Source of the DNA: Acetobacteraceae bacterium
GTDB lineage: Bacteria > Pseudomonadota > Alphaproteobacteria > Acetobacterales > Acetobacteraceae
Assembly (NCBI GenBank): GCA_041910415.1
Contig: JAYRQX010000462.1
Span: forward strand, 1 to 28,122
Direction: 5' to 3'
Length of the DNA stretch: 28,122 nt
The notes beneath the pieces were generated by a model. The model saw nothing but the letters and a program-made list of their open reading frames with translations. It made no database searches and was not told the DNA's origin. The translations under genes were made by a program, and so were the position numbers. This document shows positions 4,198 through 20,461 of the stretch, in pieces; the first letter of the stretch is position 1; the number at the start of each line of letters is the position of its first letter.

Positions 4198-5160
4198 TCA
4201 GCCGCCCTCGCGGATGCCGGCCGAACGGATGACCGGCTCCCAGATCCGGCGCGTCTCCAGGATCTCCGCCCGGTAGGCCGCGGGCGAATTATAGGCGGAC
4301 TGCCAGAGCAACTGGCGCATCCGCTCCTGCACCGCGGGAACCTCGAGCGCACGGCCGATCGCGCGGTGCCAGAAGGTGACCCATTCGTCGGGCGTTCCGG
4401 CCGCGAGCACCATGCCGTAGGTCACGTCGCCCACGAAGCCCGGCAGCACGTCGCGCATCAATCCGACATCGGGCAGCACGGCTTCGCGTTCGGCAGACGC
4501 GGACGCGATCGGACGCAGCCGCCCGTCGCGAATGAAGGGCAGCGATTCCGGCAGCAGGCTGAAATAGAGATGCGCATTCCCGGCCATGATGTCCATCAGC
4601 GCCGGCGTGCCGCCGCGATACTGCACGCTCTCCATCGTGATCCGCGCTTCCATCATCATCCGCACGGCCAGCAGATGCGTCATGCCGCCGGCACCGGAAT
4701 TGCCGATGTTGAGGCGGCCCGGATTGGCCCGGGCATAGGCGACGAGCCCGGCAAGGTTCGTGTAGGGGGCTCCGGGCTGGCCCACCAGCACCATCGGCAC
4801 GCGCACCAGGTTGGTCAGCGGCAGCAGCGCACGGTCGGGGTCGATCGGCAGGTTGCTGCCAGGAATGATGGGCGCATTCGCGAGATTGGCGGTGGCGGAC
4901 AGCGCGAGGGTGTGGCCGTCGGGCGGCGCATTGGCCACGGCCTGCATCGCAATGAAGGTGCCGGCGCCGCTCCGGTTCTCGACCACCACCAGGCGCCCGC
5001 CAAGCATGGGCGTGAGGTGCTCCGCGAGCAGCCGGCCCAGGATATCCACCGTGCCGCCGGGTGCGAAGGGAACGATGAGACGGACATTCTGCGTGAGCGT
5101 CTGCGCCTCGGCGCGGAGGCCGAACAGCATGACCAGCACAACGACAATGGCGCGCATCAT
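4198..5160 (-). CDS. Bug/TctC-family substrate-binding protein (Bug-2)
   Basis: Signal peptide, VRLIVPFAPGGTVD, VENRSGAG, PDGHTL, GNSGAGGMTHL and YRGG. Confidence 0.9.
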   Translation of the reverse strand: MMRAIVVVLVMLFGLRAEAQTLTQNVRLIVPFAPGGTVDILGRLLAEHLTPMLGGRLVVVENRSGAGTFIAMQAVANAPPDGHTLALSATANLANAPIIPGSNLPIDPDRALLPLTNLVRVPMVLVGQPGAPYTNLAGLVAYARANPGRLNIGNSGAGGMTHLLAVRMMMEARITMESVQYRGGTPALMDIMAGNAHLYFSLLPESLPFIRDGRLRPIASASAEREAVLPDVGLMRDVLPGFVGDVTYGMVLAAGTPDEWVTFWHRAIGRALEVPAVQERMRQLLWQSAYNSPAAYRAEILETRRIWEPVIRSAGIREGG

Positions 5161-5340: not shown

Positions 5341-6987
5341 TCATGCGGCGGCGCGGTCCGCTGCTGCCGCCGCCGAGGCGAGGATCATGGCGGCGCATTT
5401 CTCGCCGATCATGATGCAGGGCGCGTTGGTGTTGCCGCTGGTCAGCGTCGGCATGATGGAGGCATCGGCGATCCGCAGCCCCGCGATCCCGTGCACGCGG
5501 AGCTCGTGATCCACCACCGCCATCGGATCCGACCCCATCCTGCAGGTGCCCACGGGGTGGAAGGTGGTCTCGGCGTTGTGGCGCACCCACTCCACCAATT
5601 CCGCGTCAGTCTGCAGGTGCCGCCCCGGCGCGATCTCCTCGCCGGTGATCTCCTTGACCGGCGACGTCGCCATCAGTTCCCGCGCCTTGCGGATCGCGGC
5701 GACGACACCGTCGCGGTCATGCTGCGTCGACAGGAAATTGAAGCGGATCGCCGGCGGCGCGGACGCATCGGCGGATGTCACATGCACGGACCCCGTGCTC
5801 TCCGACCGCAGGACATTCACATTCATGGTGATGCCCGGCCGGCGCGACACGCGACGCTCCCGCCCGATCATCTCGTAGAGGAAAGGCAGGACCGAGACGG
5901 TCGCATCCGGCGCCTCCAGCCCCGGCCGCGTGCGGAAATACATGCGCAGGGGAACCGCCGTCGAGGCCAGGAAGCCATCGCCGCTCAGCGCGTAGCGGAT
6001 CGCCTCGCGCGCCAGGCGCCAGCCCCGGCCCTGGTCGCTCCGCGTCGCGAGCGGCTCGGTGATCGCGAACTTGATGCGGGGCGAGTAGTGGTCGCGCAGA
6101 TTCTCGCCCACGCCCTTCAGCGTGTGCATGGGCTCGATCCCGAGCCCGCGCAGCACATCCGGCTGGCCGATGCCGGAGAGTTCCAGCAGCTTGGGCGAGT
6201 TGATGGAACCGCTGGAGACGATGACCTCCCGCGCCGCCCGCGCCGCCCGCCTGTCGGTGCCGACCGCGTAGCGAACGCCGACGCAGCGCCTGCCGTCCAG
6301 TAGGAGCGTCTCGGCCAGGGCTCCCTGCTCGATGACGAGATTCCGCCGCGACCGCGCGGGGTCGAGATAGGCGTAAGCCGTGCTCTGGCGACGGCCCTTC
6401 GCGATCGTCACCTGCGACATCGCTATGCCATCCTGGGACGCGCCGTTCAGGTCGTTGTTGTAGGGAAGGCCGATGCGCGCCGCCGCCTCGATCATCGCCT
6501 CCAGCACCGGCACCTCGCCCCGCGGCGTGTCGGTCACGCGCAGCGGTCCGCTGCGGCCGCGGTACTCGTCGGACCCGCCGTCATAGCTCTCCATGCGCTT
6601 GAACAGCGGCAGCACGTCATCCCAGCTCCAGCCGCGATTGCCGAGCTGCGCCCAGTGGTCGTAGTCCTGCCGCTGGCCGCGGATGTAGACCATGCCGTTG
6701 ATCGCGCTGGACCCGCCGAGCATCCGCCCCCGCGGCACGTCGATCCGCCGCCCGCCCGAGCCTTCGTCGGGTTCGGCGGAGAAGCACCAGTTCACCGCGG
6801 GATTGTCGATCATCTTCGACACGCCGACAGGGATGCGCGACCAGAAATAGCCCGATCCCTCGGTGCCGGCTTCGAGCAGGAGGACGCGATACGCGCCGCT
6901 CTCGCTCAGCCGGCTCGCCACGACCGCGCCGGACGAGCCTGCGCCGACGACGATGTAGTCATAGGTGGCAGGCGCTGCAGACGACAT
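5341..6987 (-). CDS. GMC-family FAD oxidoreductase (choline dehydrogenase-like, substrate unknown)
   Basis: YDYIVVGAGSSG Rossmann motif, RGRMLGGSSAINGMVYIRG, and the catalytic His/Asn pair (FHPVGTCRMG, GNTNAP). The start could instead be ATG 6996. Confidence 0.92.
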   Translation of the reverse strand: MSSAAPATYDYIVVGAGSSGAVVASRLSESGAYRVLLLEAGTEGSGYFWSRIPVGVSKMIDNPAVNWCFSAEPDEGSGGRRIDVPRGRMLGGSSAINGMVYIRGQRQDYDHWAQLGNRGWSWDDVLPLFKRMESYDGGSDEYRGRSGPLRVTDTPRGEVPVLEAMIEAAARIGLPYNNDLNGASQDGIAMSQVTIAKGRRQSTAYAYLDPARSRRNLVIEQGALAETLLLDGRRCVGVRYAVGTDRRAARAAREVIVSSGSINSPKLLELSGIGQPDVLRGLGIEPMHTLKGVGENLRDHYSPRIKFAITEPLATRSDQGRGWRLAREAIRYALSGDGFLASTAVPLRMYFRTRPGLEAPDATVSVLPFLYEMIGRERRVSRRPGITMNVNVLRSESTGSVHVTSADASAPPAIRFNFLSTQHDRDGVVAAIRKARELMATSPVKEITGEEIAPGRHLQTDAELVEWVRHNAETTFHPVGTCRMGSDPMAVVDHELRVHGIAGLRIADASIMPTLTSGNTNAPCIMIGEKCAAMILASAAAAADRAAA

Positions 6988-7066
6988 CAGGACCATCTTC
7001 CCCGGAAGCATTCGCCGCAGAGACTACCAAGCGCGGCGCGGTGCACCAAGGGAGCGCGCCACGGGA

Positions 7067-7807
7067 TCAGCCCGTCGATCCACCCTCATTGGGCTGGAGG
7101 TGTTCATGAAGCCGGGCGCGGGCGGCGTTGTGGACATGCCGCGTGGCGAGAAGGGCGGCCAGTTCCTCGTCCCCCTCGGCAACGGCCCAGAGGATCATGG
7201 CGTGTTCCTGCCAGTCCTGTACGGCGCGACGCCGGCTGTTGCGGCGGAAGACGAGTTCCGTGCGCTCGCGCAGCGGGCGCATCAGCTCCTGCAGCACGCG
7301 GTTCGCGCCGGCATCCACCAGGAGATCGTGGAAGCGGGCGTTGAGCCGTGCGAGTTCCTCCGCCTCCCCTGTCGCGGCGACGGCCTGGCCCTGTTCCAGC
7401 AGGCGGCGGATGCCCGCCAGTGCCTCCGGCTTGCGATGACGGGCCGCGAGGCGCGCGTTCAACCCTTCCAGAACCGCGCGCACTTCAATGAGGTCGCGGG
7501 CGAAATCGGGCGTGAGCGCCGCGACCTGCGCGCCGCGCTTGCCCGGCCCCTGCTCGGACGGCACGGCGAGGCCTTCGGCGACCAGTTGCTTGATCGCCTC
7601 GCGGATCGGCACGCGGGACATGCCGAAATCGGCGGAGAGCCGTTCCTCCACCAGCCGCTCCCCAGGCCGCAGCGCGCCGGAGAGGATGGCGCGGCGCAGC
7701 CTGCCGAGCGCCTGCCGGCTCAATGGCTCGCGTGAGGCCTCGTCACGGCGGTCCGGGTCGGTATCGATGGCTTCGCTGGGGGACATGGGCTCCGTACGAC
7801 CGGACAT
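7067..7807 (-). CDS. GntR-family (FadR/FCD-type) transcriptional regulator
   Basis: wHTH LRRAILSGALRPGERLVEERLSADFGMSRVPIREAI plus an FCD-type C-terminus (NARFH...EH..I...HV). The start could instead be ATG 7786. Confidence 0.93.
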   Translation of the reverse strand: MSGRTEPMSPSEAIDTDPDRRDEASREPLSRQALGRLRRAILSGALRPGERLVEERLSADFGMSRVPIREAIKQLVAEGLAVPSEQGPGKRGAQVAALTPDFARDLIEVRAVLEGLNARLAARHRKPEALAGIRRLLEQGQAVAATGEAEELARLNARFHDLLVDAGANRVLQELMRPLRERTELVFRRNSRRRAVQDWQEHAMILWAVAEGDEELAALLATRHVHNAARARLHEHLQPNEGGSTG

Positions 7808-7849
7808 GGCATGTGGAAGCAAGGACGCCAAGGGTCTTCGCTCGGCTTA

Positions 7850-7861
7850 TTTGCATACGAA
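7850..7861. promoter_or_regulatory. Candidate GntR operator, copy 1 (TTTGCATACGAA)
   Basis: 10/12 match to the perfect palindrome at 7999-8010. On the minus strand it lies immediately downstream of a TACTAT -10-like hexamer (7862-7867) pointing at gntR. Confidence 0.6.
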
Positions 7862-7998
7862 ATAGTACTTGGCTGCCTCCAGGGAAGGCACGCAACCAGC
7901 CCGGTATGCCGCCATTACCGATCATTTCTTCGTTCTATATGATTCTGCATGTTCTTTTTGATCGAAAACCCTCCCCCGAGAGGTTGACCTTTGCCGAC

Positions 7999-8010
7999 TT
8001 CGTATACGAA
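7999..8010. promoter_or_regulatory. Candidate GntR operator, copy 2 (perfect palindrome TTCGTATACGAA)
   Basis: Perfect 12-bp AT-rich palindrome with a GTATAC core in a GC-rich window, 9 nt downstream of a TTGACC -35-like hexamer (7984-7989), upstream of the transporter gene. Confidence 0.68.
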
Positions 8011-8102
8011 ACTCCCTCCCGCACCCGAAACCGGGTCGCCACGAAATCTGCCGCGCCGGGAGGCCGGCCGCACGCGTCGAACCTTTGGGGAGTGCTGGCT
8101 GA

Positions 8103-9665
8103 ATGGCTGTCCAGATCGGAGCGGTCCACTACGTCTATCTCGTGGGTGTCGTCGCGATCGTCCTGTCGATGATCCTGCGCGCGAATGTCGTCGTGCCCGC
8201 GATCCTCGCGACCTTCGCCGTCGCCGCGACCTTCTCGGGCAGCCTGATCGGGGCCACGATCTCGGTCTTCAACGGCTCGCTCGTCGCCGCCAAGGAGCTT
8301 TTCAACATCTTCCTGGTCATCGCGCTGATGACCTCGCTGCTCAACGCGCTGAAGGCGCTGGGCGCGGACCAGAAGATGGTGCGGCCCTTCCGGCGCATCA
8401 TGACCAACGGGCAGATCGCCTTCGCGGTCGTCGTCGCCATCACCTATGTCATCTCGCTGTTCTTCTGGCCGACGCCGGCGGTGCCGCTGGTGGCCGCGAC
8501 GCTGCTGCCGGCCGCGATCGCGGCGGGGCTGCCGGCCATCGGCGCCGCGGCGGCGATCGCCATCGCCGGCCAGGGCATGGCGCTGTCCTCGGACTACGTG
8601 ATCCGCGTGGCCCCGGGCATTTCCGCGCGCGCGGCCGGCGTCGCCGATCAGGCGGGCGTCATCGCGGACAAGGCGCTGGTGCTGTCGCTGGTGACCGGCA
8701 TCATCGCGCTGGGGCTTGCCTACCTCTCCATCCGCAAGCGGATCGTGGCGCCGAGCCAGGCGCATCTGCATCGCTGGATGGCAGGCGCCACGCTGCAGGA
8801 AAGCCTGGCCGAGCAGCGCGAGCATGTCGCGCCCAACATCGGCTCCTTCGACAAATCGGTGATCGCGCTGCGCGCCGCCGAGGGCGAACCCGAGCAGGAC
8901 CCGGCGCTGGACCGCCCCGCCATCACGCCGAGCGGCGCGGTGACAACGGGGCCCGCTTTGCCCTGGTCCGGCATCATGGCGGTGCTGACCCCGGTCGTGT
9001 TTGGCTGCCTCATCCTGTTCATGCTGGCACCGAAGGTCGTTCCGGGCTGGCACGTGCTGCGCGGCGGCGACGCGGCGGCGCTGGTGGGCGGCACGGCGGC
9101 GCTGATGATGCTGGTCGCGACCTTCGCCGCCGATGGCCGCAAGGCCATGCACACCGCGGCCGACCATGTGGTGGACGGCTTGGTCTTCTCCTTCCGTGCC
9201 ATGGGCACGGTGCTGCCGATCGCGGGCTTCTTCTTCCTGGGCGCGGGAGAGTTCTCCGCCTCCATCCTGGGCTTGCCGTCCGGCACGCAGGGCCCTGACC
9301 TTCTGTTCGAGGTGATCCGCGCCTCCGACCACCTGATCCCGCACAACCCCGCCATCGTCGCCTTCGCGGTGATGATCGTCGGCATGATCACGGGCATCGA
9401 CGGGTCGGGCTTCGCCGGCCTGCCGCTGACCGGCGCGCTGGCCGGCGGCCTCGGCCCCGTCGTGAACATGGACCCGACGACGCTCGCCGCCGTCGGCCAG
9501 ATGGGCGCGGTCTGGACCGGCGGCGGCACGCTGATCGCGTGGTCCTCGCTGATCGCCGTCGCCGGATTCACCCGCGTGCCGGTGCTGGACCTGGTGCGCC
9601 TGCTCTTCGGCCCGGTCTGCGCCGGGCTGATCGTCTCCACCCTGCTGGCCGTCGTGCTCTGGTGA
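8103..9665 (+). CDS. Multi-pass membrane protein, probable secondary transporter (ion-transporter-superfamily-like, family unassigned)
   Basis: 520 aa with more than ten hydrophobic segments in two halves separated by a hydrophilic loop. Gly-rich hairpin-like motifs (AGQGMALSSD, GIDGSGFAGLPL, WTGGGTL). SD GGGGAG upstream. Confidence 0.75.
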   Translation: MAVQIGAVHYVYLVGVVAIVLSMILRANVVVPAILATFAVAATFSGSLIGATISVFNGSLVAAKELFNIFLVIALMTSLLNALKALGADQKMVRPFRRIMTNGQIAFAVVVAITYVISLFFWPTPAVPLVAATLLPAAIAAGLPAIGAAAAIAIAGQGMALSSDYVIRVAPGISARAAGVADQAGVIADKALVLSLVTGIIALGLAYLSIRKRIVAPSQAHLHRWMAGATLQESLAEQREHVAPNIGSFDKSVIALRAAEGEPEQDPALDRPAITPSGAVTTGPALPWSGIMAVLTPVVFGCLILFMLAPKVVPGWHVLRGGDAAALVGGTAALMMLVATFAADGRKAMHTAADHVVDGLVFSFRAMGTVLPIAGFFFLGAGEFSASILGLPSGTQGPDLLFEVIRASDHLIPHNPAIVAFAVMIVGMITGIDGSGFAGLPLTGALAGGLGPVVNMDPTTLAAVGQMGAVWTGGGTLIAWSSLIAVAGFTRVPVLDLVRLLFGPVCAGLIVSTLLAVVLW

Positions 9666-9714
9666 TCGCGGCGGCGTCGCTCTCAACCCCGACTGCACCC
9701 CGAAGGAGGATGCC

Positions 9715-10446
9715 ATGACCAAGCTCATGAACCGCGACGAATTCCGCACCGCGCTGGAACAGGCCATCGCCGGCAAGAGCGCCAACAAGTCGCCCTTCAG
9801 CATCGGCTGGGCGAGCGGCAAGCTGACCCGCGCACACCTCTCGCGCTGGGCCGAGAACCACTTCCACTATGTCGGCCCCTTCGCCGAATACCTCGCCTAT
9901 GTCTATGCGCGCATGCCCGCGCAGTACCAGGAAGCCAAGGACTTCCTGCTGCAGAACATGTACGAGGAGGAGATCGGCGGCGATCGCCACACCGACCTGC
10001 TGATCCGCTTCGCCGAGGCCTGCGGCACGACACGCGAGCGGGTGATGGACCCCGAGAACATGTCGCCCACGACGCGCGCGCTGCAGAGCTGGTGCTACTG
10101 CGTCGCCATGCGCGAAGACCCGATCGTCGCCGTCGCCGGCCTGGTCGTCGGGTTGGAGTCCCAGGTGCCCAGCATCTACCGCCGCCAGACGCCGACGCTG
10201 CGCGAGAAATACGGCTTCACGGACGAGGAGGTCGAGTTCTTCGACCTGCACATCGTCTCCGACGAGATCCATGGCGAGCGCGGCTACCAGATCGTGCTGG
10301 AACACGCGGACACGGTCGAGTTGCAGCAGCGCTGCCTGAAGATCTGCGAAGTGGGCGCGCAGATGCGCCTGCTCTACACGACGGCGCTCTACAACGACTA
10401 CGTGGCGAGCGAGATTTCCCTGCGTGAACTCGGCATGGCCGCCTAA
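9715..10446 (+). CDS. Heme-oxygenase-like diiron (HDO) protein, CADD/PqqC/TenA structural family
   Basis: Complete CADD-type ligand spacing: E85-x6-H92 (NMYEEEIGGDRH), E148 (LESQVP) and H179-x3-D183-x2-H186 (HIVSDEIH). Strong SD AAGGAGG at 9703-9709. Confidence 0.88.
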   Translation: MTKLMNRDEFRTALEQAIAGKSANKSPFSIGWASGKLTRAHLSRWAENHFHYVGPFAEYLAYVYARMPAQYQEAKDFLLQNMYEEEIGGDRHTDLLIRFAEACGTTRERVMDPENMSPTTRALQSWCYCVAMREDPIVAVAGLVVGLESQVPSIYRRQTPTLREKYGFTDEEVEFFDLHIVSDEIHGERGYQIVLEHADTVELQQRCLKICEVGAQMRLLYTTALYNDYVASEISLRELGMAA

Positions 10447-10455
10447 TTTGTGAGG

Positions 10456-10479
10456 GCGGGGCCCTCGATGGGGCCCCGC
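10456..10479 (+). terminator. Intra-operon hairpin after the HDO gene
   Basis: Perfect 9-bp stem GCGGGGCCC-tcgatg-GGGCCCCGC starting 9 nt after the stop codon, followed only by a weak pyrimidine run (atgtctctctg). Confidence 0.55.
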
Positions 10480-10504
10480 ATGTCTCTCTGGAAACGCACA
10501 AACA

Positions 10505-10828
10505 ATGCCGCTGGTGACCTTCCGCAAGGGCAATGTGACGGTCGAGGAGGAGGTGGCGGACAACACCAACCTGGTGGTCCGCGCCGGCATTCGGAAGTTT
10601 CCCCACCCGCATCTGCGCTACGGCTGCGGCATGGGGAAATGCGCCAAATGCGCCTGCCAGGTGCAGGCGGGCGCCGAGCACCTGCCGCCGCCCAACTGGA
10701 AGGAGAAGAAGCAGCTCGGGGCGTATCTGGAGCAGGGCTACCGCCTCTGCTGCCAGCTCTGGCTGCATCACGACATCACGCTGGAACAGCCCCTGCAGGA
10801 GCTGCCGGGCGCCGGCGGCCAGAGCTGA
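10505..10828 (+). CDS. [2Fe-2S] ferredoxin (Fd-1)
   Basis: C-x4-C-x2-C (CGMGKCAKC) with the distal RLCCQ; 107 aa. Confidence 0.9.
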   Translation: MPLVTFRKGNVTVEEEVADNTNLVVRAGIRKFPHPHLRYGCGMGKCAKCACQVQAGAEHLPPPNWKEKKQLGAYLEQGYRLCCQLWLHHDITLEQPLQELPGAGGQS

Positions 10829-10841
10829 AGGAACCCCCACG

Positions 10842-11156
10842 ATGTACGTCATCCTGACCAGCAAGCCCGGGCAGTTCCGCACCGAGCTGGTGCCCGGCCT
10901 GCTGCCGGTCGAAGCCTATGACTACCTGTTCTACGGGAAGAAGAAGGCGCAGTTCGTCATCGCCGAGATCGCGGGCGAGACGAAGGTGCGCGTCATCGAC
11001 GAGGTCTTCCCACCCGTGCTGAACCTGGTGCCCTCGAAGTTCCTGGAGAAATTCGACAGCGTCACCGCCGCGCGGCGGGAGCTTGAACACCTCACCACCT
11101 TCGGCAACATGCAGGTCGAACTGCAACCCATCCCGCTGCCGCAGCCCGTTTCATGA
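10842..11156 (+). CDS. Small protein of unknown function (104 aa, no Cys)
   Basis: SD AAGGA upstream, host-like GC3-rich codons, protein-like composition, and an ATGA overlap with Fd-2. It fills the gap between the two ferredoxins. Confidence 0.85.
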   Translation: MYVILTSKPGQFRTELVPGLLPVEAYDYLFYGKKKAQFVIAEIAGETKVRVIDEVFPPVLNLVPSKFLEKFDSVTAARRELEHLTTFGNMQVELQPIPLPQPVS

Positions 11157-11497
11157 TCACGATCACCTTCGTCACCAATGACGGCAAGCAGGTGCAGGCG
11201 GCCGAGAACAGCAACCTGCTGCGCGTGTCGCTGCGCGAGAAGGGCGGCATTCCCTTCAAGTGCGGCGCGGGCCTCTGCGGCACCTGCCGCTGTCACTTCG
11301 ACGCGGGGCTGGAGCACGCGGATGCCGTGAAAACCAAGGAGCGCAAGCACCTGACCGACGCCGACATCGCCGCCGGCTACCGCATGGCCTGCCAGACCTT
11401 CGTGAACGGCGACGTCGCGATTTCCTGGGACCCCAGGCAGCCCATCAAGGCCGCGCCCGTGCGGCCGGCTGCCACTGTCAAAGAGACGAGCGAATGA
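11153..11497 (+). CDS. [2Fe-2S] ferredoxin (Fd-2)
   Basis: CGAGLCGTC with the distal RMACQ. ATGA overlaps at both ends. Confidence 0.92.
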   Translation: MITITFVTNDGKQVQAAENSNLLRVSLREKGGIPFKCGAGLCGTCRCHFDAGLEHADAVKTKERKHLTDADIAAGYRMACQTFVNGDVAISWDPRQPIKAAPVRPAATVKETSE

Positions 11498-11973
11498 AGA
11501 GCTTTTTCCGACTGGAAGCGCATGAGGCTCGGACCATGGTGGCCGCGGCGCTGGCAGAGGCAGCGCGAATAAAAGTGCCGGAGACCGCCTGCGTGGTGGA
11601 TGAGGGCGGCTATCCGATCTGCCTGGAACGCATGGACGGCGCGCGCGTGACCGGCCCGCAGATCGCCTGGAACAAGGCCTTCACCGCGGCCGGCCACAAG
11701 CGATCGACGCATCTCTTCAACACGCCGCCCAACGGCCCCGCGCTGCCGGGCAACGAGGCCTTCGGCATCCAGTGGAGCTTCGACGGCAGGTTCGCGATTT
11801 TTGTCGGCGGCTTCCCGATCGTGGTGGATGGCGAGGTCGTGGGCGGCATTGGCCTGTCCGGCGGCAATGGCGAGCAGGACATCGCCTGTGGCGTGGCCGG
11901 CCTGCAGGCGCTGGCCGACCTGCTGAAGCCGCAGGGCCGGACCGTGCTGGTGCAGGCCGACATCAAGAAGTAG
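11494..11973 (+). CDS. GlcG/HbpS-family (heme-binding-type) protein
   Basis: True start is the ATG at 11494 (159 aa). Motifs CVVDEGG..ERMDGA, IAWNKAFTAA and GGFPIVVDGEVVGGIGLSGG..EQD. Confidence 0.88.
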   Translation: MKSFFRLEAHEARTMVAAALAEAARIKVPETACVVDEGGYPICLERMDGARVTGPQIAWNKAFTAAGHKRSTHLFNTPPNGPALPGNEAFGIQWSFDGRFAIFVGGFPIVVDGEVVGGIGLSGGNGEQDIACGVAGLQALADLLKPQGRTVLVQADIKK

Positions 11974-11978
11974 CGCGC

Positions 11979-12980
11979 ATGGCCTTTCGCATCCTCGTAT
12001 CAGGCGCGGCGGCCGAGTTCACGGCCGAGGCGGGCGAGACGCTGCTGGAAGCCGCGGACCGCGCAGGTGTCGCGCTGCTGCGCGACTGCCGGACGGGCGG
12101 CTGCGGCACCTGCCGCATCCGGCTGCTCGAAGGCAGCGTGGCGTATGAGGAAATGCCCTTCGCGCTGACCGAGGAGGAGGCGGCGGAAGGCTTCGCGCTG
12201 GCGTGCCAGGCGCGCGCGACCTGTGACCTCGTGATCGAACCCGCGCGCAGCGGCCCCGACCTGCCCCCATCCGCCATGCACCAGGCGGTGGTCATCGGCA
12301 CGGAACGGCTGGCGCATGACGTGACCGCGCTGCGCCTGTCGCTGCCTGAGCCGCTGGACTATTTGCCCGGGCAATATGCGAACCTGCTGCTGCCGGATGG
12401 ATCGTCGCGCAGCTTCTCGATGGCGACGGCGCCGGGCGGCGACCTCACCTTCCACATCCGCCACATCGAAGGCGGCCGCTTCACGTGCGGCATCCTGCCC
12501 AGGCTGGCGCCAGGCGCGACGCTGTCGCTGGAAGCGCCGCTCGGCGCCTTCGTCCATCGCCCCGCGGATTTCCGGCCGCTGCTGTTCCTGGCGACGGGCA
12601 CCGGCATCGCACCGATCCGCGCCATGCTGGAATCGCTGCTCGACGACGGCGACTGCCCGCCGGTCACGCTCTACTGGGGTGGGCGCAGGCTGGCGGATCT
12701 CTATCTGCGCGACGAGATCGCCTCCTGGACGGACCGCCTGACCGAGTTCCGCTTCGTCCCCGTGCTGTCGCGTGCCGGGGATGGCTGGGGCGGCGCGCGC
12801 GGCCACGTCCATCACATCTGCCTGGCCGAGATGCCCGACATGCCTGATTGCGCAGCCTATCTCTGCGGCTCGCCCGCCATGATCCGCGATGCGCGTGCCG
12901 CGCTGCTGGCCAAGGGCGCGAACCCCGCCTTCGTCTACACGGAAGCCTTCACCGCCACGCCGCCCGTCACTGCGGCCTGA
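11979..12980 (+). CDS. [2Fe-2S]/FAD/NAD(P)H oxidoreductase (oxygenase reductase-type)
   Basis: True start is the ATG at 11979 (333 aa). N-terminal CRTGGCGTC...LACQ, then PGQY, RSFS (FAD), ATGTGIAP (NAD(P)) and YLCGSPAMI. Confidence 0.92.
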   Translation: MAFRILVSGAAAEFTAEAGETLLEAADRAGVALLRDCRTGGCGTCRIRLLEGSVAYEEMPFALTEEEAAEGFALACQARATCDLVIEPARSGPDLPPSAMHQAVVIGTERLAHDVTALRLSLPEPLDYLPGQYANLLLPDGSSRSFSMATAPGGDLTFHIRHIEGGRFTCGILPRLAPGATLSLEAPLGAFVHRPADFRPLLFLATGTGIAPIRAMLESLLDDGDCPPVTLYWGGRRLADLYLRDEIASWTDRLTEFRFVPVLSRAGDGWGGARGHVHHICLAEMPDMPDCAAYLCGSPAMIRDARAALLAKGANPAFVYTEAFTATPPVTAA

Positions 12981-13959
12981 TCCCGGCCCGCGCGATCAGC
13001 TCCGCCCATTTCGCGAGGTCGCGCGCCATCACCGCGCGGAAGGCGGCTGCGCCGAGATCGGGAAGATCGAAGCCGGCGCCAATGAGCCGCGTACGTGTCT
13101 CCGGCACGCGCAGCGCCGCCAGGATGGAGGACTCCGCGCGGTCTGCGATGGCCGACGGCAGCCGTGCGGGACCGAGCACCCCATACCAGGAGAAGGCCTC
13201 GAACCCCGGATAGCCAAGCTCGGCGATGGTCGGCACGTCAGGCAGGTCGCGCCAGCGCGATGGGCCGGTCGTCGCCAGCGCGCGCAGCCTGCCGTCGCGG
13301 ATGGCCGCGACGGCCAGGATCGGATTCTGGAACACCGCATCGACCTGCCCGCCCAGCACCGCCGCCTGCGCGGGGGCCGTGCCGGCAAAGGGCACATGCG
13401 TCAGCTCGACGCCCGCCGAGACGGCAAGCAATTCGCCCGAAAGATGGCTGGCCGCGCCGACGCCGCCCGATCCGTAGCTGACGGGCCTGGTGCGCGCGAG
13501 TGCGATGAGCTCGGCCAGCGTCGTCGCGGGCACCGAGGGATGCACGACAAGGATGTGCGGATGCTGGGCAACCAGCGCGATCGGCGTGAAGTCGCGCAGT
13601 GGATCGAAGGGCAGCCGCTGCACGAGCGCCGGCGCGGTGACCAGCGTGTTCGCCGCGACGACAAGCGTCAGCCCGTCAGGCGGCTGCCGCGCCACGTAGT
13701 CCGAACCGACATTGCCGCCGGCCCCTGGCCTGTTCTCGACCACGACCGGCTGGCGCCAGCTTCGCCCCAGCTGTTCGGCAAGCGCGCGCGCAATGACGTC
13801 CGAAGGCCCCCCTGGCGCGAAGGGAGCGACGAGGCGCACGGGCCGGTCGGGCCAGTTCGCTTGCGCCGCCGTCCGTGATGCGGCGGCGACGGAGGCCACG
13901 AGCCCCGCGAATGCGCGGCGCGTCATGGCGCCGGACAAGCCGCATCCAGAGCGTGCCAT
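12967..13959 (-). CDS. Bug/TctC-family substrate-binding protein (Bug-3)
   Basis: TRRAF signal, WPDRPVRLVAPFAPGGPSD, ENRPGAGG, YGSGGVGAASHL and WYGVLGP. Start is 13959 (SD-like AAGGGA) or 13926. Its 3' end overlaps the reductase 3' end by 14 nt. Confidence 0.9.
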   Translation of the reverse strand: MARSGCGLSGAMTRRAFAGLVASVAAASRTAAQANWPDRPVRLVAPFAPGGPSDVIARALAEQLGRSWRQPVVVENRPGAGGNVGSDYVARQPPDGLTLVVAANTLVTAPALVQRLPFDPLRDFTPIALVAQHPHILVVHPSVPATTLAELIALARTRPVSYGSGGVGAASHLSGELLAVSAGVELTHVPFAGTAPAQAAVLGGQVDAVFQNPILAVAAIRDGRLRALATTGPSRWRDLPDVPTIAELGYPGFEAFSWYGVLGPARLPSAIADRAESSILAALRVPETRTRLIGAGFDLPDLGAAAFRAVMARDLAKWAELIARAGIRPQ

Positions 13960-14031
13960 CGCGTCTTTTCCCTTCGCTTCGTCCCGTGCCAGGATCAGCA
14001 AAACCCAACTGCATAAGGGTGGGAAGCGTCC

Positions 14032-14997
14032 ATGTTGTTGCTGCGCCGCACACTGACCGCGAGCGGGCTTGCGCTCGCCATCCCGCCCCGATCGCGCGCC
14101 CAGGCCTATCCGGCGCGGCCGGTGCGCGTCGTCGTCGCCTTTCCGCCAGGCGGACCCACGGACACGATCGCGCGCGTGCTCGCCGCACCGCTGGAGCAGG
14201 CCTGGGGGCAGCCGGTGGTCATCGAGAACCGCGGCGGCGCGGGCGGCAATATCGGCACCGCCCAGGTCGCGCGGGCCGCGCCGGATGGCTACACGCTGCT
14301 GCTCTGCGCCAGCTCGCACGCGATCAACCCGAGCATCTTCCGCAGCATGCCCTACCACCCCGTGCGCGACTTCGCGCCGGTGGCGCTGCTGACCTCCTCG
14401 CCCTTCGTGCTGGTCGTGCATCCCTCGATGCCCGTGCGAACCTTCGCGGAGTTCCTCGCTTATGTCCGCGCGCGCCCGGGGCAGGTGAACTACGCCTCGG
14501 CCAGCAACGGCAGCGGCAACCACCTGGCGATGGAGATGCTGAAATCGGCGGCCGGGCTCGACATGGTGCATGTCCCCTATGCGGGTGCGGCGCCGGCGAC
14601 GACGGATCTGCTGGCGGGCCAGGTCTCCGTCATGTTCAACAACATGGTCTCCGCCGCGCCGCATATCCCGACGGGGCGGATGCGCGCGCTCGCCACATCC
14701 GGCCTCACGCGTCCGCCCTCACTGCCGGATGTGCCGACGGTCGCCGAGACGATCCCGGGCTTCGATGCGACCACCTGGTATGGGGTGCTGGCACCCGCCA
14801 GCACGCCGGCACCGTTGGTGACCGAGCTCAACGCACGCTTCGTCGCGGCGCTCGCCAGCCCCGCGGTGCGGGAGAGGCTGGTCGCCCTCGGCCTCGACGC
14901 CACGCCGAGCACGCCGGATGCCTTCACCCGCTTCATCGAGACCGAGATGGTGAAGTGGGCCGCAGCGGCGCGCGCCGCGAACGTGCAGATGGATTAG
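14032..14997 (+). CDS. Bug/TctC-family substrate-binding protein (Bug-4)
   Basis: YPARPVRVVVAFPPGGPTD, ENRGGAGG, PDGYTLL, YASASNGSGNHL and WYGVLAPA. Confidence 0.92.
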   Translation: MLLLRRTLTASGLALAIPPRSRAQAYPARPVRVVVAFPPGGPTDTIARVLAAPLEQAWGQPVVIENRGGAGGNIGTAQVARAAPDGYTLLLCASSHAINPSIFRSMPYHPVRDFAPVALLTSSPFVLVVHPSMPVRTFAEFLAYVRARPGQVNYASASNGSGNHLAMEMLKSAAGLDMVHVPYAGAAPATTDLLAGQVSVMFNNMVSAAPHIPTGRMRALATSGLTRPPSLPDVPTVAETIPGFDATTWYGVLAPASTPAPLVTELNARFVAALASPAVRERLVALGLDATPSTPDAFTRFIETEMVKWAAAARAANVQMD

Positions 14998-18861: not shown

Positions 18862-19625
18862 GCGTGCCGGATATCCAGGAAGCGGCGGTAGAGCGGCACG
18901 CCGACGACCAGCCAGACCAGGATCAGCATGGTGGAGACCGCCGAGACCGACGGGCGGGAGGAGTATTCCAGCGAGGTGAAGATGCGGATCGGCAGCGTCT
19001 GCATGCCCGGCCCCGCGAGGAACAGGGAGACCACCAGCTCGTCGAAGGAGAGGATGAAGGCGAAGACCGCGCCGGCGACAACCCCGGGACGGATCAGGGG
19101 CAGCGTCACCTGGAAGAAGGTGCGCGTGGCGCTGGCGCCCAGATTGGACGCCGCCTCCTCCACCGCCGGATCGAACTCCGACAGGCTCGCCATGACCATG
19201 CGGATGACGAAGGGCGTCGTCAGTACGGCATGCGCCGCGATCATGCCGTGCAGCGTCCCCGCCAGCCCGACCTGGTTGTAGAAGATCAGCAGCGCGAGCC
19301 CGAGCACGATGGCCGGGAAGAAGATGGGCGACAGGAACAACGCCGCCGCGGCCGCCTTGCCCGGGAAGCGCCCGCGCGCGAGACCGAGCGCGGCCGAGGT
19401 GCCGAGGATCGTGGCAATGAGCGTGGAGGAGCCGGCCAGGACGGCGCTGACGCGCATCGCCTCCATGTATTCGCGGCTGCCGAGGACGTCGGCGAACCAG
19501 CGCAGGGTGACGCCGCGCGGCGGGAAGACCGGATAGGCCGTGGTCGTGAAGGAGGTCGCGACGACGACAAGCACCGGCGCCAGCAGGTAGAGCGCGATCA
19601 GCGCATTCACCGCCCAAAGGATCAT
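18858..19625 (-). CDS. ABC transporter permease, PotC-like
   Basis: Hydrophobic, with EAA loop EEAASNLGA and FILSFDE. Confidence 0.93.
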
Positions 19626-20461
19626 GCGCCCCGCTCCTGCCGCGCGAGGCGCATGGCGATCAGGAACATGGCGACGACGGTCGCCAGCATGACGAAGGCG
19701 ATCGCGCCGCCGAAGGGCCAGTTCAGCAGGCTCATCCCCTGCTGATAGATCAGCGTGGCCATGACCGGCACGCGCGGTCCGCCGATCAGGCTCGGTGTCA
19801 CGAAGGCGCTGACGGCGAGCGTGAACACCAGCACGGATCCGGAGAGGATGCCCGGCACCGTGAGCGGCAGCGTCACCTGCCAGAAGATCCGCGCGCGGCC
19901 CGCGCCCAGATTGCGCGCGGCCTCATAGAGTCGCGGGTCGATATTAAGCAAAGCGGCGTCCAGCGCGAGCACCATGAAGGGCAGCAGCACCTGCGTCAGC
20001 GCGATGATGATTCCCGTCATGTTGTACATGAACCGGATGGGATCCTCGGTGATGCCGAGATCCATCAGCGTGCGGTTGATGAAGCCGTTGTTGGACAGCA
20101 GGATCATCCAGCCGAAGGTGCGGACGACGGCACTCGTCAGCAACGGCAGCAGCACGACGAAGTAGAGCAGCGCGCGCGCAAAGCCGCGCAGCCGCGACAA
20201 TCCGTAGGCGAGCGGAAAGCCGAGCACGAGGCTCCACAACGTCACCTCGAGCCCGAGCCGCAGCGTGCGCCACAGGATCGCCAGGTGATAATCGTCGGTC
20301 AGGAAGGCGGTGTAGTGCGCAAGCGTCCAGCTGTCCTGGATGCCGCGCCCGGCCTCGTAGCCACGGAAGCTCAGAACGAAGAGCGTGATCAGCGGCCCGA
20401 GCATGAAGAGCGCGAGCCAGACGGCGTTCGGCAGCAGCAGCCTGGCGCCCGTGCCACGCAT
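19622..20461 (-). CDS. ABC transporter permease, PotB-like
   Basis: PLLTSAVVRTFGW, EAA loop YEAARNLGA and PSLIGG. ATGA overlap with the next permease. Confidence 0.93.
   Translation of the reverse strand: MRGTGARLLLPNAVWLALFMLGPLITLFVLSFRGYEAGRGIQDSWTLAHYTAFLTDDYHLAILWRTLRLGLEVTLWSLVLGFPLAYGLSRLRGFARALLYFVVLLPLLTSAVVRTFGWMILLSNNGFINRTLMDLGITEDPIRFMYNMTGIIIALTQVLLPFMVLALDAALLNIDPRLYEAARNLGAGRARIFWQVTLPLTVPGILSGSVLVFTLAVSAFVTPSLIGGPRVPVMATLIYQQGMSLLNWPFGGAIAFVMLATVVAMFLIAMRLARQERGA

Follow-up and report, generated by a model that had tools for sequence, protein, structure and literature searches.

A compact dip-type gene cluster, probably for dipicolinate hydroxylation by a haem-oxygenase-like dimetal protein, in an Acetobacteraceae bacterium

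A 28,122-nt stretch of DNA (the window) from an Acetobacteraceae bacterium, the genome of which is 82% complete, was found to include seven co-oriented genes and a divergent GntR-family regulator gene that very probably constitute a compact version of the dip cluster for catabolism of dipicolinic acid (DPA; pyridine-2,6-dicarboxylate), a spore compound. This version includes the regulator, an importer and a complete hydroxylase module, and DPA, which would be converted to 3-hydroxydipicolinate (3HDPA), is the likeliest substrate. The initial annotation of the window had proposed a catabolic multicomponent oxygenase built on the fold of the haem-oxygenase-like diiron oxidases/oxygenases (HDOs), in which electrons pass from an NAD(P)H-fed reductase via ferredoxin to a diiron site, and which acts on a small imported solute under control of the divergent GntR protein. 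This was right in kind, the predicted solute being a small anion, and matches the dip cluster. However, the same annotation knew of no described system of such composition and held that the substrate could not be predicted from sequence. Neither statement survives, as a characterised cluster, dip, is already in the literature (PMC11472048). It maps gene for gene onto the window and its footprints are exact in an orthologous locus, while orthology, synteny, the operator and the DipR residues all point to dipicolinate. As the cluster corresponds to the published one, substrate included, the system is known, not new.

The dip cluster of Alcaligenes faecalis JQ135 (Mu et al. 2022, doi 10.1128/aem.00360-22; Jiang et al. 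2024, PMC11472048) directs the catabolism of DPA. Its dipD gene, described as 'the monooxygenase component', is essential for conversion of DPA to 3-hydroxydipicolinic acid, a reaction in which O2 is the source of the oxygen (PMC11472048). The 18O2 incorporation reported for JQ135 is consistent with an O2-activating dimetal cofactor in DipD, and the roles of other dip genes 'still remain unclear' according to the authors (PMC11472048). Dip clusters are widespread and fall into 30 organisational types, including those of Belnapia (type 6), Achromobacter insuavis, Cupriavidus necator and Bordetella (PMC11472048). DipR is a GntR/FadR-family repressor that binds to six sites, each with a GWATAC core, from which DPA releases it; the operator motif was defined by electrophoretic mobility shift assays, footprinting and mutagenesis, residues R63, R67, H196 and H218 of DipR are essential, and the sequences of two footprints obtained with DNase I in the dipA-dipB spacer are printed (PMC11472048).

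The published 24-mer footprint was found as an exact match in 5 of 301 genomes of the Alcaligenaceae, the family around Paenalcaligenes. Both the 24-mer and the 23-mer footprints are present, again exact, between a permease homologue and a TauE gene in an Alcaligenes-type locus with a GC content of 56% (L094), which was used as the reference cluster for comparison with the proteins encoded in the window. GTATAC or GAATAC occurs in L094 in each of the six promoter regions named in PMC11472048; five are perfect GTATAC, and the GAATAC is that of the 23-mer footprint. Genes in L094 are arranged as GntR; TauE; permease and gamma-glutamyltranspeptidase; HDO, aldehyde dehydrogenase, GlcG and reductase; an 83-aa open reading frame; and ferredoxin, small protein, ferredoxin and OCD. 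Judged from this order, L094 fits the published units one to one, such that dipD would be the HDO gene, dipE the aldehyde dehydrogenase, dipF GlcG, dipG the reductase, dipJ/K/L the genes for ferredoxin, small protein and ferredoxin, dipM OCD, dipB the permease, dipC the gamma-glutamyltranspeptidase and dipA TauE. The abstract of Mu et al. from 2022 reportedly names dipF as a heme-binding protein, dipG as a ferredoxin reductase and dipJ/K/L as ferredoxins, all proposed as components of a multicomponent DPA monooxygenase. Window proteins share from 43-44% (DipR) to 83.5% (DipD) identity with their L094 counterparts (Table 1).

The GntR protein of the window, which is ~44% identical to L094 DipR, retains R63, R67, H196 and H218, all in invariant columns of the alignment. 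R63 and R67 are involved in DNA binding, and H196 and H218 in effector binding. A single copy of the core GTATAC is present in the 28,122 bases (0.33 expected per window), at positions 8002-8007 inside the palindrome TTCGTATACGAA in the dipR-dipB spacer, and the core was found ahead of dip units in 17 of 17 other loci checked. The window copy lines up with the GTATAC on the permease side in Acetobacteraceae relatives, where it is preceded by a TTGAC -35-like box. These relatives have two GTATAC copies in the spacer, 74-169 bp apart (~160 bp in most), and a GCATAC-containing site in the window, ~150 bp from the first, aligns with a perfect GTATAC of four of them (L018, L059, L024 and L029), suggesting that this second site is probably also bound by DipR.

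The description of the operon in the initial annotation, as seven tightly spaced co-oriented genes divergent from gntR, was confirmed in its coordinates, its spacing and both ATGA overlaps. Intergenic distances along dipBDJKLFG are 49, 58, 13, -4, -4 and 5 nt, and the overlaps, read directly from the sequence, are at 11153-11156 (dipK stop and dipL start) and 11494-11497 (dipL stop and dipF start). A spacer of 271 bp separates dipB from dipR. Families were assigned using open reading frames, Pfam and NCBIfam.

Table 1. Genes and operator sites of the dip-type cluster in the window, with the evidence for each assignment
Feature	Position	Strand	Evidence
dipR, GntR/FadR-family repressor, DipR orthologue	7067-7831	-	Pfam GntR + FCD; 43-44% identity to L094 DipR
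Probable second, dipR-proximal DipR operator, core GCATAC	7850-7861		Alignment with sites of relatives
DipR operator beside operon promoter, palindrome TTCGTATACGAA, core GTATAC	7999-8010		Only GTATAC of the window
dipB, 520-aa permease, probable dipicolinate importer	8103-9665	+	55% identity over 519 aa to gene in L094 dipB position
dipD, predicted HDO component (dipicolinate 3-hydroxylase), 243 aa	9715-10446	+	Haem_oxygenas_2 (PF14518) 8.9e-37; 83.5% identity over 243 aa to L094
dipJ, plant-type [2Fe-2S] ferredoxin	10505-10828	+	Pfam Fer2; 69% identity to L094 dipJ position
dipK, Cys-free 104-aa accessory protein	10842-11156	+	No family match; 45% identity to L094 dipK position
dipL, second plant-type [2Fe-2S] ferredoxin	11153-11497	+	Pfam Fer2 3e-12; 61% identity to L094 dipL position
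dipF, GlcG/HbpS-like (DUF336) accessory protein	11494-11973	+	Pfam HbpS-like 2.5e-33; 78.6% identity to L094 dipF position
dipG, NAD(P)H-dependent reductase, N-terminal [2Fe-2S], FAD and NAD domains	11979-12980	+	Pfam Fer2 + FAD_binding_6 + NAD_binding_1; 48% identity to L094 dipG position

The NCBIfam models nearest to DipG were BenC, AntC and MmoC, every one of which scored under its cutoff. The DipB permease gave no match in Pfam or NCBIfam, and its neighbours in language model and structure comparisons are DcuC/GntP/DctM-type anion carriers. As these are its nearest relatives, DipB would be suited to import of a dicarboxylate.

The hydroxylase genes of JQ135 are distributed over three units, whereas those of the window are all in the single operon dipBDJKLFG. 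Orthologues of dipR, dipB, dipD, dipJ, dipK, dipL, dipF and dipG are shared at 44-84% identity, together with the GTATAC operator, the key residues of DipR and the divergent orientation of the regulator gene, but the second operator is degenerate in the window, unlike in the JQ135-type cluster. The dipA (TauE), dipC (gamma-glutamyltranspeptidase), dipE (aldehyde dehydrogenase), dipH and dipM (OCD) genes are absent from the window, dipA and dipH having been sought in the window only. Among relatives that share the operon order, the closest are Belnapia mucosa (L029), Dankookia rubra (L018) and a Roseococcus metagenome-assembled genome (MAG; L057). No dipG orthologue was found in these three genomes, where the best matches are 27-33% identical, nor was a close dipE match at E <= 1e-100. 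The window differs from these nearest relatives in having dipG, 5 nt after dipF.

Co-occurrence was examined in 80 retrieved loci of alpha- and betaproteobacteria, HDO relatives being present in at least 567 genome stretches. In nearly all 80 loci, the HDO gene was accompanied by those for both ferredoxins, the small protein, GlcG, the permease and the regulator, and the same gene set was present in three further loci, one of them gammaproteobacterial. The reductase is present in ~44 of the 80 loci, and gene orders are shuffled. The grouping of these genes is not due to chance. An aldehyde dehydrogenase related to KGSADH, not found in the window, is encoded in 57 of the 80 loci, and further recurrent neighbours encode a TauE/SafE-family permease, a gamma-glutamyltranspeptidase-family protein, an amidase and an OCD/mu-crystallin protein.

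DipD is highly conserved, with 84-95% identity among the 120 best matches, which come from alpha-, beta- and gammaproteobacteria. Identity is 83-89% across alpha- and betaproteobacteria, and 149 of 243 positions are invariant over 89 homologues. In the same 89 sequences the predicted ligands E85, H92, E148, H179, D183 and H186 are invariant. The best matches among solved structures were those of CADD/4-aminobenzoate synthase (PDB 1rcw, 8va9 and 9pj4), with E-values of 1e-18 to 5e-17 and all six ligands aligned, identifying DipD by sequence as a member of the HDO fold with the ligand set E, H, E, H, D/E, H. The segment TFYVKW of CADD aligns with PFSIGW of DipD, replacing Tyr by Ser, and the Lys after the ESQ motif is replaced by Gln; this Tyr and Lys are the sacrificial residues of CADD, which donate atoms to the product. 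A role of DipD as a CADD-type self-sacrificing para-aminobenzoate synthase is not supported, given the Ser and Gln at these positions.

CADD (CT610) and NePabS share with DipD the HDO fold and the six aligned dimetal ligands. However, they are self-sacrificing, whereas DipD, with Ser and Gln at the sacrificial positions, would have an external substrate, a dedicated electron supply and a catabolic role. MboA/MboB, involved in mangotoxin formation (PMC13185094, PMC13108848), resembles DipD in that an HDO requires a dedicated co-encoded redox partner, but that system serves biosynthesis, forming an alkyne in an amino acid side chain by desaturation, and relies on one partner protein. In the dip system, a heteroaromatic ring would be hydroxylated, and the HDO is accompanied by a reductase, two ferredoxins and two accessory proteins. 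The soluble methane monooxygenase (sMMO) and the toluene and phenol hydroxylases are similar to the dip system in architecture, with a ferredoxin-FNR reductase of the MmoC/BenC type feeding a carboxylate/His-ligated diiron site, small accessory proteins that carry no cofactor and ring hydroxylation with O2. However, their catalytic fold is a ferritin-like four-helix bundle, unrelated to the haem-oxygenase-like fold of DipD.

No family was found for DipK in Pfam or NCBIfam. In 82 of 85 homologues it has 0-2 Cys residues, and is therefore unable to hold a [2Fe-2S] cluster; the exceptions are three DipK-DipL fusions. The AlphaFold2 model (pLDDT 93.4) has a mostly beta fold, and a Foldseek search of the model against the PDB gave no match, the best E-value being 0.21 with TM <0.35; there was likewise no fold match with MmoB/DmpM. 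The fusions are in-frame proteins of 220-246 aa, two of them from Ramlibacter loci and the third from a Burkholderiales MAG (L038:5590-6252, L060:7472-8137 and L066:7431-8171), and suggest that DipK and DipL act as a pair. Automatic family naming calls DipK a 'ferredoxin', although the Cys ligands are missing.

Across proteobacterial classes, DipD (84-95%) and DipF (73-85%) are conserved far above the ferredoxins (mostly 51-76%), the reductase (46-58%) and the regulator (42-70%). This pattern would fit a tight complex of DipD and DipF.

A mechanism can be proposed in which, when DPA is lacking, a DipR dimer would occupy the operator at 7999-8010, and probably also the degenerate site at 7850-7861, repressing both dipR and dipBDJKLFG. 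Binding of DPA to the FCD domain, via the conserved equivalents of H196 and H218, would release DipR. DipB would bring in the DPA dianion, and DipG would transfer hydride from NAD(P)H to its FAD, from which single electrons would be relayed, via the [2Fe-2S] cluster of DipG itself and those of the ferredoxins DipJ and DipL, to the DipD dimetal site. There O2 would be activated and DPA hydroxylated at C3, yielding 3HDPA, with DipK and DipF serving as accessory proteins. Of this scheme, the order of electron transfer, the identity of the metal and the functions of the two accessory proteins are inferred.

Several points weigh against assigning the window to DPA catabolism. The equation of dipD with the HDO gene rests on gene order, operator positions and indirect citation, with no accession-level match. 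No DPA phenotype is known for the source organism or for any Acetobacteraceae, and it is from the gene content that the organism would be expected to use DPA. The core of the second operator, GCATAC, is outside the tested GWATAC consensus, the published variant core being GAATAC, and a sigma-70 consensus scan of the dipR-dipB spacer found no promoter. The genome, at 82% completeness, has no close orthologue of dipE, dipM or dipC, the best matches being 39, 33 and 35% identical, respectively, and for this reason the full route beyond 3HDPA is not visible. However, as PMC11472048 reports 30 cluster types of varying composition, the missing downstream genes are not disqualifying.

Some of the same features could indicate a paralogous, dip-like system that shares its architecture and regulator family with dip but acts on another pyridine or aromatic dicarboxylate. 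The Acetobacteraceae version is without dipE, dipC, dipM and dipA, and in Belnapia, Dankookia and Roseococcus also without dipG; DipR is only 44% identical; and one Aminobacter locus has two DipD copies. Such a change of substrate is nevertheless unlikely. With 83-89% identity across classes and 149 of 243 positions invariant, there is little room for an altered pocket in DipD, the effector residues of DipR and the operator core are retained, and Belnapia is itself named as a holder of dip (PMC11472048). Full-text literature searches on ferredoxin-linked or catabolic HDOs gave nothing relevant, and an HDO mini-review from 2026 (PMC13108848) mentions neither DipD, dipicolinate nor ferredoxin, as might be expected if this were an undescribed multicomponent HDO oxygenase for some other solute. 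The gene-for-gene correspondence with dip and the exact printed footprints in the orthologous locus make this very improbable.

A desulfonating monooxygenase, converting an organosulfonate to sulfite and an aldehyde, was also considered. Achromobacter loci include a TauE/SafE-family gene within the cluster and a SorA-like molybdenum sulfite dehydrogenase gene adjoining it, TauE is also present in the Aminobacter cluster, and the aldehyde dehydrogenase seen in 57 of the 80 loci would suit such a reaction. However, the TauE-family neighbour proved to be dipA of the published DPA cluster, upon which this explanation was dropped; a SorA gene next to the cluster was seen in Achromobacter alone (19 of 80 loci) and the window has neither a TauE nor a SorA gene, leaving desulfonation as the least probable of the explanations considered. 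Two literature matches, P. aeruginosa PA3519 and A. baumannii ABUW_2437, were set aside as unrelated to the system.

Given that the assignment to dip is the best explanation, what is still novel is the link between DipD and the HDOs, together with DipK and DipF, which are as yet unexplained. Work on HDOs does not appear to have made this link, while papers on DPA degradation describe DipD genetically, and no in-vitro reconstitution of the dip oxygenase was found in the literature searched. It is quite possible, though put forward here tentatively, that DipD represents a distinct HDO subclass, for which both the hydroxylation of a (hetero)aromatic ring and the electron supply through a dedicated series of three [2Fe-2S] clusters would be firsts among HDOs. 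It would also have two obligatory accessory proteins, namely DipK, the fold of which has no solved relative, and the DUF336 protein DipF. If reconstituted, DipD would broaden the repertoire of HDOs to include aromatic hydroxylation and electron supply by a multicomponent system, and the compact Acetobacteraceae operon, with its seven parts in one transcript, offers a convenient minimal set for this. The presence of dip clusters in metagenome-assembled Acetobacteraceae also extends the range of possible DPA recyclers.

The gene adjoining dipR in the window (coordinates 5341-7011, minus strand) encodes a GMC oxidoreductase resembling choline dehydrogenase, with a score of 582 bits where the cutoff is 605. 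A GMC gene product with 44-45% identity is encoded directly after the GntR gene in four loci (L063, L072, L076 and L079), three from Bradyrhizobium and one from a MAG labelled Bordetella parapertussis, and Belnapia (L029) carries a copy with 61% identity ~4.5 kb from dipR. In certain lineages, this GMC oxidoreductase may belong to the dip regulon as an accessory.

Three TctC (Bug-family) solute receptors are also encoded in the window (coordinates 1945-2904, 4198-5160 and 12967-14664), and the last of these genes, on the opposite strand to dipG, overlaps the dipG stop region by 14 nt. A TctC gene was also found inside or adjoining the dip clusters of several betaproteobacterial loci (L012 and L038), and some lineages may take up DPA via a tripartite carrier.

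In 19 Achromobacter loci (e.g. L044:6713-7948), the SorA-like gene and a small partner gene are located directly upstream of dipD in divergent orientation, an arrangement specific to this lineage. In the Aminobacter aminovorans locus (L081), the two DipD-like HDO genes (coordinates 10001-10759 and 19215-19943) are 9 kb apart, one accompanied by genes for ferredoxin, DipK, ferredoxin, aldehyde dehydrogenase, TauE and OCD and the other by those for GlcG and the reductase, and the region between them includes genes for an extracytoplasmic function (ECF) sigma factor, a peptidase and a toxin.

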